Shown here one piece after another: positions 4,378 to 61,079 of a stretch of DNA of 64,000 nucleotides; position 1 is the first letter of the stretch, and each line of letters opens with the position of its first letter. The notes below the pieces were generated by a model. That model had not been told where the DNA came from. It saw only the letters and a program-made list of their open reading frames with translations, and did not search any database. Location: contig OZ024743.1 in assembly GCA_964016885.1 (NCBI GenBank), positions 123,008,001 through 123,072,000 of the forward strand. Reading direction: 5' to 3'. The position numbers and the translations under genes were made by a program. Source of the DNA: Eledone cirrhosa. Taxonomy: Eukaryota.

Positions 4378-4589
4378 AACGAAGGAAGTGTGGTAAGGAA
4401 CCAGATGGACCATACCGCACCAGAGTACTCAATATTTAGGGTAGTAGGGTGAGTAATAGGACAATGTTTAACCCCGACGGCAGAGCTCAACCCGTTTCGA
4501 CGGGTATTTCTGGTGGATGGCTATTTCAGTTTAGAAATAACCGTTGAAACGGCTTCAGCTCTGCCGTCGGAGTTAAAGATTGTCCTATA
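4378..4589 (-). mobile_element. Fold-back non-autonomous Penelope-like fragment in (TA)n
   Basis: Inverted arms 4456-4511 / 4533-4589; GAAACGG..CCGTC half-HHR; TACTC..GAGTACTC hairpin at 4423-4455; a second family member lies at 24333-24430. Confidence 0.7.
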
Positions 4590-4603
4590 TATATATATAT
4601 ATA

Positions 4604-4803
4604 TTGGTAAACGGAATAGAAAATGCTGACAAATTGTTCACAGTTGAAAAATGGTTTAATTAGGAATAAAAGAGTATTAGTGATTGTATGGGATAGTATT
4701 CAGTTGTGGTTTTAAGTTTTTAAGTTTTTACCGGTTGCGCATTTCTAAATGCTTTTCAAAAATAATTTTGAGATAGAGTGTCCGTGCTGTTTGCTCTGAT
4801 CTG
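4604..4803 (-). mobile_element. Penelope-like fragment with degenerate minimal HHR at 4725-4762
   Basis: Minus strand TTGAAAA-GCATTT/AAATGC-GCAAC-CGGTA; flanked by (TA)n. Confidence 0.6.
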
Positions 4804-4821
4804 ATATATATATATATATAT

Positions 4822-5507
4822 TGACGGGTACATTGGTTTTCACCTGACTCTTACTATTAGCTTAGGAAGCCTTTTTAACCACATTTGGAAGGCTAAACTT
4901 AATGAGAGGATTGATGCTTGAAGAGGTGATGGGCACCGGCAATACTACGCTCTGAAATGCCATGATAGACGAATAGTCAAATAACATATCGGATCAGTTG
5001 AGGCACGGAGAACCAATGACCACGCTTTCCTCTACTGTTTTCCAGAGTGGAGGTGATCAATGTGCAACTGTGACGATGACAACAATGATAATGAGACCCA
5101 CATCGATAACCATCAACTTTTCCGGAGAAAATACTGTCTTCGGGACATGGAACGTCCGCAATCTATATGCTTGTGGAAGGACGAAAGAACTTATACAGGT
5201 ACTTGCCAGATACACTTGGGTTATCTTAGCGCTGGCTGAAGTCAGGGGATCTGGATTTGGTGAGATGACTACAAATGAAGTCCACAAACAGGCACAGCTG
5301 TGATGACACCACGCCGCATGGAGTGGGTTTCATCGCTAACAGGGTGAGCTCAGTCATCAGCTGTACAACAGTATCCAGCAGAGTCATCATCACAGCGTGG
5401 CTGCAAGATCACAGAATATTACAATTATACAAGTCTATGCACCAAGACTCTATTATGAGGATGATAATGGCATCAAGGAAATCATCCGAACGGCTACTAA
5501 AAAGGAC
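4822..5507 (+). mobile_element. 5' remnant of an RTE-like LINE (5' UTR plus disrupted APE endonuclease)
   Basis: GTWNVRNL, ILALAEVR, GVGFI and ITIIQVYAP motifs spread over frameshifted ORFs 4998-5303, 5275- and 5397-. Confidence 0.85.
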
Positions 5508-6544
5508 ATATATATATATATATATATATATATATATATATATAAATATAAGTATGTATACGTACATACATATCTGTATACAGACGTACAGTAGTATGTA
5601 TATACATACATACATGCACACACACATATATATATATATATATATATGTACGTATGGGTTTACAGGAACATTTATTATAATGTTCGGTTTGTTTGTAAAC
5701 AAACAGCCCGAATTAAGCCGTACAGTGTTCGGCAACCATCGTTGCCCTTTTGTTCAACACTGACAAAGGAACCATGAACTAGTTTCTAGCTTATTAGCTA
5801 TCATCGGCACCGTATACCTTCCTGTCAGTCGATTGAACGTTTGAAAGTATATACTTTCCGTATGCATATTAACGGCTGAGCAGCCTAATTTGCATATCGA
5901 GTGAAGTAGTCGGCCGGGCGTACCGAAAACGATAAATGGAAAAAAATAAAATTTCATTTCTCACATAGATATATATACCTCAAACATCACTGCAACCTAG
6001 GATCTCTTAGATTTTCTACATCAAATCTGATACATATTATTTCCTTTTTCATAGATCTTTTTCAGTTTAAGCTTTAGTGTCGTCAGAACAAAATACTAAC
6101 TGTTGACATCATCACTAGGGAAGGTCCTCGCCTCGGCCTTATCGATATAGGACTTGAATCTCTGAGCTGCGATGATAAAGTCAATTTGTTTGTGAGTCCT
6201 GCCATTAGGTGCATGTCATGTTGGTCTCTGTGGGGTCTCGTGGGAACAGACTAGAGTCAGCTTGTAGGTGTTAGCAAATCCTAGGAGGCAGAGTCCACCG
6301 ACGTTTGCTTCTCCAAACCCAACTTGTCCCAATATCCTAGCCCATTCGTCACATGCACCCGGGTCTACTTTGTCTTTCTAGTTTCTTAAGACTATATATT
6401 ATCAGTTGTACAAGAGTAATGTCTACCTTAGTTGTTACGTAGTAACTTCCTGACGATAAGCAGGTCTTAGCGATTTAAAGCACTACACGTCAGTAGTTTA
6501 CCCCAGGTAGGTGATAATGAGTGATGGAGTATTCATTTATCAAA

Positions 6545-6600
6545 TAATTGTTTCTACTATTGGCACAAGGCCAGAAAATTACCCAGTACATAATGGTAGT
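6545..6600 (-). mobile_element. SINE 3' end fragment
   Basis: Matches the tail of the SINE copy at 7268-7456. Confidence 0.75.
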
Positions 6601-6847
6601 TAAGATAGGATTAAATCACCATAATTGTTTATTGCACTATATATATTTCTATTACATCGTTATTCATGTGACTTCGTCAAATTCCTACGCAATCATTGGT
6701 GCAGTTATGCAGTAATTGTGATATGCCGGTGGCCATGCACCTCCATCCTGTGGTGAACTACTGATGAAGTCACATGAATAATCATGTAACAGAAATATAT
6801 ATAATGCAATAAACAATTATGGTTATTTAACCCCGTCTTAACTACCA
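6595..6847. mobile_element. Fold-back/MITE-like element with ~85 bp imperfect inverted arms
   Basis: 6595-6679 is the reverse complement of 6761-6847; abuts (TA)n. Confidence 0.75.
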
Positions 6848-7267
6848 TTTTATATATATATATATATATATATATATATATATATATATATATATATATA
6901 TATATATATATATATATGAAGGGAGAGAGAGTGAGTGAGAGAGACATATAGATAAATAGATAGACAGACGCTAGTTATTATGACTACAAGATCTAGCAAT
7001 ATTAATGTAGTTTACGACTTAAGACAATTCACATCCAGTGCCGTGTCCTTCTATATCCACTGCTTTATATGGCTTCGACACATTCAATACAAGCACCAGC
7101 ATTAACCAAAGCTGAATATCGTGTTGGAATAAATCGATCTTCCGACGTGGAAGAGGCTCCTATCAGAAGAAACCGTCACCGAATCATAATTTTTCTTACC
7201 TGTTGTACAAACCTGGCTGGACACAGAACACTGCACAAACATTCTAAAAGTTCTATAGAGTTATGAA

Positions 7268-58536: not shown

Positions 58537-58668
58537 TTATTAAAATAACAGATTAAAGTTTAAGCAAAGAATCGGTGCTTTCACCCTTAACGGTTCTTAT
58601 ATATTTGATATATATTTATCCTTATCGAGCCGTCTTTGGATTTTAGTCTTCAAATTTATTATTATTAC
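58537..58668. mobile_element. Family C element, inverted and deleted form
   Basis: Homologous to 25231-25397. Confidence 0.85.
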
Positions 58669-59030
58669 TATATATATATATATATATATATATATATATA
58701 TATATATATATATATATATATATATATATATATATATATAAATATATATATATATATATATATATACATATACCCTAGGAATATATAAGTTTCAAATTTA
58801 GTGAAAGATTAACTGTGTAATTAACATGTGATCATACACAAAATACAATCAACACTTATTAGTTAGTTGGAAACATCTTGACCAATATAATTCACAAGCT
58901 CCATTTTATATGTCTGAAGTCATCGCGTACATCACTAGAGCTTTGCTAAAGACGTGAACGTCTCCTCTCCTAAAATACACATAATGTTTGTCTACTCAAA
59001 GGAAATCAATTAACATGAAAGTACTCTTAC

Positions 59031-59070
59031 CTGACAGTCCGTAATATAATTGCATTGTAGAAGAACTTAC
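59031..59070 (-). other. Candidate 40-nt exon / recursive splice site
   Basis: Minus strand TTTGCTTTCTTTCAG|GTAAGT..CTGTCAG|GTAAGAG. Confidence 0.45.
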
Positions 59071-59536
59071 CTGAAAGAAAGCAAAGTAAAACTTTTTACA
59101 ATAAATAAACTTCGGCAAAATGACAGGAAGTCAAAAGATATATATCACAGTTTTATTTGAGATGAGACTCTAAAAAGAACCGTCTGTATATAATAAATAT
59201 AACATAATGCGAATAGAGTTAAATTTGCAATAAATCAAGTGCTTTACTAGTTGAAGGTATTATTTACAAGATAATAAATACATTGCTTTGATCTAAGAAG
59301 ACTGGCGTTCCTTCTTAGGCTAAGCCAACATTATCGTCTTGAATAGTGATTTATGTCCTCTAATCTGAATATATTCCAATTTATTAGACTAAACCAAAAT
59401 AGTAATAACCGTAACGATAGACCATAAATATGCATTTCTGTTCAGTGTGTGTGTGTGCTTCTTTAAGTATACACTATTGCAACGTATATTTAACAATTTA
59501 CAGTCGTGTTTTTCTCACTTACTGATATTATTATTA

Positions 59537-59720
59537 TTGGCAGTATCAGTAGAGGGTCGGACGCCATGCTTTGATGCATAGAGTTACGGCCCTTTCCAAT
59601 CTGAGTTCAAATCCCGCTGAGGTTAAATCTGCCTTTCATCCTTACGAGGTCGATAAAATAAAGTACCAGTAATGCACTGGATAATTGCTGGCCTTGTGCC
59701 AAAAGTAGAATCAATTATTA
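59537..59720 (+). mobile_element. tRNA-derived SINE
   Basis: Family homology; ATT runs on both sides. Confidence 0.92.
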
Positions 59721-60039
59721 TTTATTAAACAAATCAAATCGTCCAAAACCCAAATAAAGGCTATGTCATTTTTAAAGGTCGTTTGGGAATAGTGAAATAG
59801 CTATATCAGGAAATGGAAAATAGAACATGGACTTGGTTCATAAGAAACTATTATTTAACTGTATAATAATGTCTGTTCAGTTACGAGTTTTTTTTCAATA
59901 GATGCCTGTCTTGTGCAGCACAGTTTCTAATTTTTTAATGGTATTGTAATATTCTATACACCACAAAAAGGCGTTTTGAAAGAACATGTCTCTCTATATA
60001 TATATGTCATGGAAATATTGCAGACATCACACAGAGGAA

Positions 60040-60320
60040 TATTTTGCCTTTCATCCATCAAGGATCGATAAAATAAATCACATATCAAGTACTGGTTCTA
60101 TTTAATCGACTATACCCCCATACCTCCAATGTTAGGCATTGTGCCTATATTAGACAATATATCCCACGGCAAAGTTTATAGATATTAGTGCATCGGATTA
60201 ACTTATTTGCCACTTGTTCAAAACAGTAATATTCTGAGTTTCAGTTCCACTGAGATCAACTTTGCCTTTCATCGTCTTGGGGTTGATAAAATAAATAGCC
60301 ATTAATATAATTCAGTTGAT
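60040..60320 (+). mobile_element. Two degenerate SINE fragments
   Basis: TTTGCCTTTCATC..GATAAAATAAA occurs twice. Confidence 0.7.
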
Positions 60321-60884
60321 TATATATCATGTTCCTTTTGAAAATATTGACAAATCAAACGACTGCTACTTTTAAATATTTGTTTTAGAGAAAAGCAAAA
60401 CAGCACGATGTAAAGATTTAGAGTTCTGTTGCTGCCTTGAGTGCTTTAGGTGTATGGATTTGAAAAGAATAAAAGCTTTCGTAGACTTAAAGCATCTGGG
60501 AACCATTTTATAAGTATTCATAGCAGGAGATCTTAATTAGTAAGACAACGTTCATTTCACCCTCCGTTTTTACAATAACATAATGGGGTCAGTGAGGTTA
60601 ATGTCGAATTTTAGAGAATAATTTCAAAAGTATTTCTAATATGTATTATACATAAGACTGAAAAAAAAACTCAGACAGTGTTCCTAAATGCGTAAATATG
60701 TATCTATGTATAGGTTATCATTATATAGACACACACACACACAAGCACGCACACACACACACGCACGCGCACGCGCACACACACACACACACACACGCAC
60801 ACGCGCACACACACACACACACACACACACACACACACACACACACACACACACACACACACACACACATATATATATATATAT

Positions 60885-61079
60885 GAGAGCGGGGGTGTAA
60901 CGGGGTTAACCACAGTAAGTAAGGTAATCAATACATAGCAGAGTATAAATGTTTAATATAGAAATGGGTTCTACAGGACTAGAACTGTTGCAGTCGAAGG
61001 AAAGACAGTCGGCATTCCTGATGATTTCCCTCGAATGAAACACTTCTAATCCTGTAGAAGCCATTTCTATATTGAATAT
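60885..61079. mobile_element. Fold-back Penelope-like fragment
   Basis: Arms ~60949-61003 / 61025-61079; CTGATGA..GAAAC at 61018-61041; TACTC motif on minus at 60941-60945. Confidence 0.7.

Follow-up and report, generated by a model that had tools for sequence, protein, structure and literature searches.

Penelope-like elements (PLEs) of the Hydra clade have been described by Craig et al. 2021 (PMC8557442) as carrying a hammerhead in the pseudo-long terminal repeat (pLTR), inserting into (TA)n and showing an inverted, 5'-truncated arm and also a 'tail'; the available text calls the insertion mode and the origin of tail and inverted arms undefined. In a PLE of another clade, the Poseidon element PAc (Frangieh et al. 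2024, PMC11167929), initiation is internal: the protein, predicted to be a dimer, begins synthesis at two internal positions flanking the tail, and each strand of an AT-rich target is nicked and extended by it, as we propose for the elements studied here. Unlike here, the PAc starts lie inside the open reading frame (ORF), in an 'AC-rich stem loop' reported not to be homologous to the target, and the available text describes neither a repeated cis signal nor a rule that each insertion uses one site of each kind. The window analysed here is a stretch of 64,000 nt of Eledone cirrhosa (assembly GCA_964016885.1, contig OZ024743.1, positions 123,008,001 to 123,072,000; genome 3.0 Gb), seemingly cephalopod-like in its repeat landscape and crowded with (TA)n runs and short elements between them, most of which we assign to the Hydra clade. 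Their common motif is a small bulged hairpin, composed of RCTC, a stem-loop, a 2-nt T-H bulge and GAGY, and it occurs twice (hp1 and hp2) in the 5' untranslated regions (UTRs) of autonomous elements, between hammerhead and start codon. Insertions end just 5' of hp1 (site 1) or of hp2 (site 2), and the two arms of one insertion use one site each. Earlier publications already cover the tail, the inverted arms, the targeting of (TA)n, the hammerheads and initiation at internal sites; the hairpin pair is a new cis element in a known clade, and no description of it or of the one-of-each rule was found in the open literature, most subscription journals being outside that coverage.

The ends were mapped on reference UTRs with TA matches masked and with the references of family UF0 and of the C-like elements left out. 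For family A a DNA search with upstream sequence alone gave nothing, so that its unselected ends come only from random and bystander loci; the read-through count of family UF2 is a lower bound, and three top ORF-start loci were excluded. Of 211 unselected copies, 179 adjoin (TA)n, 27 adjoin some other sequence, and the remaining 5 are read-through copies. The (TA)n-adjoining ends fall at site 1 in 80 cases and at site 2 in 92, that is, 172 of 179 where 37 are expected under uniform ends, with modes at -8 from hp1 and -6 from hp2; five of the seven ends located elsewhere are no more than 7 nt from hp2. When the query lay entirely upstream of hp1, 65 of 69 ends fell at the two sites, and in the few metagenome cases that match, the site-2 end of L215 and that of the inverted arm of L218 adjoin (TA)n. 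The known PLE tail is therefore the hp1-hp2 stretch, 76-166 nt long here by hairpin spacing as against 30-40 nt in the available text of PMC8557442. The overlap between junction and TA run has a mean of 2.45 nt (283 ends, selected ones included), above the null values of 0.95 for the whole UTR and 1.41 near the hairpins. This overlap, the position of the hairpins in the 5' UTR and the weak hp1 of UF0 would fit ends that are set by the AT patches alone through pairing with the TA primer, the hairpins serving translation or hammerhead folding, or just stopping the pairing. Such an explanation is very unlikely, since other TA-like patches of the UTR are unused (7 of 179 ends elsewhere, 5 of them close to hp2), the offset is fixed across families and the ORF-less family D keeps both hairpins.

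The original prediction, made from the window alone, had placed the junction 0-6 nt upstream of a single hairpin, at TA microhomology. The microhomology and the peaks just 5' of the hairpin were found, the latter at -8 and -6 instead of 0-6, and in the copy with the hairpin at 41850 the arm ends about 15 nt before it. The single hairpin does mark one end; the second one, which marks the opposite end, had been missed. The shared hairpin at junctions is confirmed, and the phenomenon is larger than claimed.

Hairpins with loops from 3 to more than 60 nt were compared by anchored pair counts instead of a covariance model. The set, 59 hairpins anchored by sequence only, includes the related host families UF2, UF3, UF5, U320 and D and a few mis-anchored rows. 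In the 2-nt-bulge register, 53/59, 46/58, 34/48 and 22/40 are paired at the four inner positions; slid registers pair only 7-20 of 58-59 at the first of them. The permutation probability is ≤0.0034 at each of the four, and four to six pair types occur from position 2 onward. The stem covaries across families, as had been expected. Of the 59 hairpins, 51 have TT, TA or TC as the bulge, and a compensated closing pair is present in both hairpins of one metagenome family. The two sites can be told apart by their first inner pair, with T-A present in 19 of 23 hp1 and C-G in 20 of 24 hp2. RNAfold recovered the hairpin in four of seven window examples tried (A, B, D hp1 and G) and that of C in part.

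Both hairpins are present in 9/9 host reference UTRs used, in agreement with the earlier suggestion that autonomous PLEs would carry the motif in their pLTRs. Family E was at first known only as short fold-backs, and a second hairpin after its tail was predicted beforehand and then searched. The tail end followed by a 6-nt AT patch and GCTC gave 389 pattern matches, some double-counted, against 0 with the reversed-pattern control; full hp2 and a Hydra ORF follow the pattern, and several matches lie about 3.5 kb apart, as in tandem arrays. Outside the host, 34 Hydra-type loci from metagenomes of other organisms were reduced to 17 family representatives, of which 12 show at least two anchors, 4 a single one and 1 no anchor. 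Hairpins also occur in published coral, sea-cucumber and sea-louse consensuses. In the accessible part of the PMC8557442 supplement, Hydra-1_Ajap begins with both hairpins, Hydra-1_Crog has variant forms, and Hydra-2_Ajap and the record preceding Hydra-1_Obim end in hp1 plus tail; when a curated end is joined to its start, it falls 2 nt (Ajap) or 6 nt (Crog) before a hairpin. These consensuses hold the hairpins without remark, and the words 'hairpin' and 'stem-loop' are absent from the main text in its available form. As a separate observation, UF0 (L275-L304), an abundant Hydra family, has a UTR that contains a TA stretch and lacks a clear hammerhead core on the sense strand, and its copy L296 starts at (TA)n right at hp1.

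The two sites are combined in a strict manner. Head-to-head pairs in which each arm ends at (TA)n numbered 75 in six families, 36 of them unselected, and every pair joins site 1 with site 2 (same-site pairs, 0/75); 12 more pairs have one read-through arm. Element D of the window obeys the rule in reverse orientation, with the inverted arm at site 2 and the direct copy at site 1. Arm divergence is 1.8% within insertions versus 6.7% between them in family A, and 5.6% versus 11.9% in family E, and the two arms of one insertion share minority letters. In 25 pairs it is the site-1 arm that extends further 5' and in 10 the site-2 arm, while 40 pairs have equal arms (17 versus 3 for differences of at least 15 nt); the centres overlap in 37 of the 75, and in 7 the site-2 arm ends within 40 nt of hp1. 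Because the longer site-1 arm in 25 of 75 pairs holds sequence absent from the site-2 arm, it is not a snap-back copy of the latter, which rules out a plain snap-back of a single cDNA. A fold centre at the hammerhead cleavage site was rejected as well, the centres of family E lying about 60-70 nt before hp1 and the predicted cut about 25 nt.

On the basis of the strict one-of-each pairing and the shared variants, we propose, with a probability of roughly 65%, a twin-priming model in which the hairpin pair would position two copies of the reverse transcriptase (RT)-endonuclease (EN) on one RNA and both nicked (TA)n strands would prime. In the model, the RT-endonuclease would bind hp1 and hp2, probably as a dimer, and the ...TATA-3' end of each nicked strand would pair with 2-5 nt of the U/A patch located 5' of its hairpin. 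Both RTs would move 5'-wards along one and the same template, with the site-1 enzyme ahead; an inverted arm requires that the top strand of the target act as primer on a sense-strand template. The two cDNA ends would join, often at a short palindrome, giving rise to an inverted arm, a direct arm and the tail, that is, the hp1-hp2 interval. As hp2 lies outside every site-2 end, it would never reach the 3' end of the daughter copy and templates would have to include it after the ORF; those that are productive would arise by read-through transcription of tandem arrays or would be unit-length RNA circles. In L1 twin priming both target strands likewise prime on one RNA, producing an inversion, but there the first primer sits at the poly(A) end, the second site is variable and there is little duplication, whereas here the two sites lie internally at fixed positions and one region is duplicated in the arms. 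Circular templates have been proposed earlier in the available text of PMC4209133. Regularly spaced Hydra units of 3.5-3.7 kb (G000 C1:437200337-437210965, C1:91476611-91487273 and C6:38071301-38086173) are probable tandem arrays and candidate template loci.

The same pairs could be read differently. A snap-back cDNA holding both hairpins might be resolved by the endonuclease at the AT patches, before hp1 in one arm and before hp2 in the other, with the hairpins acting in DNA. The available text of PMC8557442 does ascribe the tail to EN-mediated resolution, and that of PMC11167929 cites tail-dependent cleavage by Penelope EN, although the latter also reports RT starts at the tail borders of PAc in vitro. 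The 40 equal-armed centres, the minority letters shared by the arms and the likeness of the AT patches to the (TA)n target would agree with resolution, and the mismatches at inner pairs (G-U 10, A-C 8) do not separate the strands; yet a symmetric intermediate gives no reason for 75 of 75 pairs having one end of each kind. A strand-transfer step would also be required, of a kind that to our knowledge is not known for GIY-YIG nucleases, and we consider resolution unlikely. Somewhat less probable again is twin priming on two RNA molecules of one donor locus, each subunit using its own template. It would avoid the displacement of one RT by the other, it would account for identical arms if one donor dominates, and either arm might be longer; but same-site pairs would be expected, of which there is none, and the site-2 arms that stop within 40 nt of hp1 do so as if meeting an occupied site 1.

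Fold-backs were also collected without reference to the motif, as (TA)n edges whose first 30 nt recur inverted downstream. In the window and 100 evenly spaced 10-kb stretches, 1,100 edges gave 118 matches; after removal of 20 with a simple-repeat tail start, 98 tails remained, which form 37 clusters. A start of the strict motif no more than 15 nt from the junction was seen in 37/98 tails and 12/37 clusters, compared with 96 of 20,000 random positions (0.5%), 29 of 9,800 shuffled tails (0.3%), 0/98 starts taken 125 nt upstream and 1/98 reverse strands; near variants occur in several more of the 37 clusters. The 20 set-aside fold-backs are mostly either one family with a TA stretch as its own patch or separate insertions. 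Side by side with these, a fold-back family (L118, L141, L173, L179, L189, L197) has a very small GCT...AGC stem after a TA patch, possibly a variant of the motif, and L197 may have both ends at one site. A motif-like match inside a repeat at 53609 and about 12 other matches in the window are not linked to junctions and were taken as chance.

Several observations weigh against twin priming on a hairpin pair. Three symmetric-looking fold-backs (L153, L181 and L197, from families without a reference and unclassified) are among the 20 set aside, and 27 of the 211 unselected ends lie at sequence other than (TA)n. Gene conversion could also yield the identity of the arms. UF0 has many long ORFs despite a degenerate hp1, and hp2 is degenerate in the C-like copy L146. 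The kinship of UF2, UF3, UF5, U320 and D means that the 59 hairpins are not 59 independent cases, the G-U and A-C mismatches given above leave folding as RNA or as DNA strand in balance, and among the seven window examples RNAfold gave no hairpin for D hp2 or for the mutated E copy.

With regard to the nature of the elements, copies of family A read on past the tail into a young, often intact ORF of 821 aa. Read-through copies of families B and E also continue into Hydra-clade ORFs, and C and F follow Hydra ORFs located upstream; for G, H and the element at 54683 no ORF link was found in the loci examined. The proteins are 33-48% identical to that of family A. The motif set that defines the clade (PMC8557442, section 11, available text) comprises RW[KR], DKT, CxCX5C, CxxC, CxH together with GIY-YIG at the C terminus, and these are common to the elements here. 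The N-terminal RWK-type motif reads RLRWT, RMRWK, RVRWR, RIRWR in A1 and RLRWR in family E; the change from DKG to DKT is present in L010, L151, L161, L307 and L320, with NKT in L056, and was not found in L306. The CxCX5C linker, CxxC and CxH around the EN and the C-terminal GIY-YIG occur in 3/3 full ORFs of 819-845 aa, each of which has a single Cys separating its GIY-like from its YIG-like motif (a CCHH check in which Cys was scored alone). A hammerhead core pattern lies 89-109 nt 5' of hp1 in 7/9 references, that of D having been found separately, and insertion is into (TA)n in the 179 of 211 unselected copies counted above. Pfam on four ORF pieces gave nothing beyond one weak RVT_1 match, and a PDB sequence search with the Hydra alignment gave no match. 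On these motifs the elements are assigned to Hydra-clade PLEs and, since copies read into Hydra ORFs, most families are 5'-truncated pLTR ends of autonomous elements, related by descent. The family A insertion at 29436..29857 is such a copy of an autonomous PLE located elsewhere, that with the 821-aa ORF.

These results change much of what the original prediction said of the families. Seven of its eight hairpins are in place (29774, 24259, 41850, 32107, 57298 and 29312 on the plus strand, 34080 on the minus); in the eighth, at 4455 minus, the wrong 5' arm had been paired, that of the family lying 4 nt further on and being mutated in this copy. The copies at 32107, 34080 and 29312, listed as fold-backs, are none, and the one at 34080 has no hammerhead. 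Families presented as unrelated are diverged relatives by descent, and the copies at 41850 and 32107 belong to a single family (72% over 167 nt). Hence the view that one hairpin marks a structural class of unrelated non-autonomous elements is largely refuted: D lacks an ORF and G, H and the 54683 element have no ORF link in the loci examined, but for A, B, C, E and F there is a link with Hydra ORFs, and there are two hairpins, one per end, which leaves that view a probability close to nil. For very abundant short repeats of this genome the motif gives exact ends, and it separates truncated autonomous copies from truly non-autonomous ones.

Family D is the only one for which the sequence shows a non-autonomous element. 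Its ORF-less unit of 591 nt has the same unit junction in 4 loci, with up to two hammerheads per locus, and hammerhead, hp1 and hp2 are kept in the 4 loci. In its type I hammerhead core, T and A replace the usual C3 and G8, as in E and UF2 (56518-57718; L139, L092, L180). Being short, non-coding and made of tandem units with a type I hammerhead, D has sequence features by which non-LTR (long terminal repeat) retrozymes are recognized. In the available text of PMC7229834 and bioRxiv 10.64898/2026.07.22.740005 these are alike in the short ORF-less tandem-type unit, the hammerhead and the PLE pLTR kinship; no hairpin pair or end rule is described there, and D, unlike the retrozymes as described, is found within (TA)n in the form of partial tandems that bear inverted arms.

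The two-hairpin rule, the fixed offsets and the strict one-of-each ends make PLE insertion directly testable. The RTs of PLEs form the sister group to those of telomerase, so that an RNA structure defining a short patch for primer alignment is relevant to template choice by RTs of the PLE/telomerase type. The motif is Hydra-specific; the two-signal design may extend further. A second PLE type with a different ORF, which by its motifs we take to be Neptune/Nematis-like (L442-L449, L156, L117, L120, L147), is without the motif in 8/8 fold-back tails. It has two end sites about 60 nt apart, used by 23 and 18 of 47 copies, and after each of them the same six letters and a TATC...GATA frame, the junction being at the stem edge and not 6-8 nt off. 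A drawing of PAc RNA in the available part of PMC11167929 shows two similar GGC...GCC stems about 41 nt apart (letters extracted from the figure), and with the second PLE type this hints that the two-signal design reaches beyond Hydra. Tentatively, and with somewhat more doubt than confidence, a duplicated RNA signal could be the general logic of EN-bearing PLEs, a clade-specific paired motif loading a protein dimer at two start sites. If so, it would account for the tail and the inverted arm and for why templates have to be tandem or circular, and the paired signal would be a compact cassette directing two-ended insertion into (TA)n.

Table 1. Hairpin-bearing elements in the window, in window positions
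Feature	Positions	Strand	Remarks
Family E fold-back insertion	4379..4585	-	hp1 ~4427-4450, 5' arm mutated here; autonomous partner in tandem arrays
Family C insertion	23892..24320	+	inverted arm stops 7 nt before hairpin 24259-24278
Family F fold-back	25231..25397	+	direct arm starts just before hairpin 25314-25359
Family F direct copy	29226..29395	+	hairpin 29312-29357
Family A insertion between (TA)n runs	29436..29857	+	inverted arm 29436-29602 ends at site 1; direct arm and tail 29603-29857 end at site 2
Family A hammerhead-like core region	29670..29733	+	mirror copy 29469-29532 on -; pattern match, no Rfam match
Family A hp1	29774..29798	+	
B-related 5'-truncated direct copy	31996..32160	+	no inverted arm; hp1 32107-32127
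Family G short copy	34020..34129	-	hairpin 34045-34080; this copy has neither fold-back nor hammerhead
Family B fold-back insertion	41551..41920	+	hammerhead 41748-41813; 3' end at site 2
Family B hp1	41850..41870	+	
Further (TA)n-flanked element	54683..54883	-	hairpin 54760-54786; absent from the original prediction; family without ORF link
Family D	56518..57718	+	ORF-less 591-nt permuted unit 56819-57409; hammerheads 56966-57051, 57557-57642; inverted arm on the left stops at site 2, direct copy on the right at site 1
Family D hp1	57133..57193	+	mirror copy 56611-56671 on -; missed in the original prediction
Family D hp2	57298..57314	+	second hairpin of its element
Family F fold-back	58537..58668	+	direct arm begins within hairpin
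Family H fold-back	60885..61075	-	hairpin ~60926-60944, 3' arm mutated; intact in 6/9 family tails

By pattern match, hammerhead-like cores occur as mirror pairs inside the fold-backs of the window; an Rfam scan of the window gave no family at gathering score. Another (TA)n-flanked family (29875-30047 and 32209-32354, minus strand) has a tail with a TTTC...GAAA bulged stem, and no ORF link was found for it. The (TA)n-flanked element at 4605-4803 (minus strand) has no hairpin and is linked to a third PLE-type ORF (L016, L146). Older fold-backs with about 75% arm identity are located at 6592-6849, with a hammerhead-like core at 6761, and at 36881-37143. The region 42000-50300 contains nested fragments of RT elements of the LINE (long interspersed nuclear element) type, including a 692-aa open frame at 46359-48437 (minus strand). 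A dispersed repeat family resembling short interspersed nuclear elements, sometimes as dimers, is found at 7265-7475, 21293-21465, 27509-28682, 50780-51325, 53350-53814 and 59518-59729.

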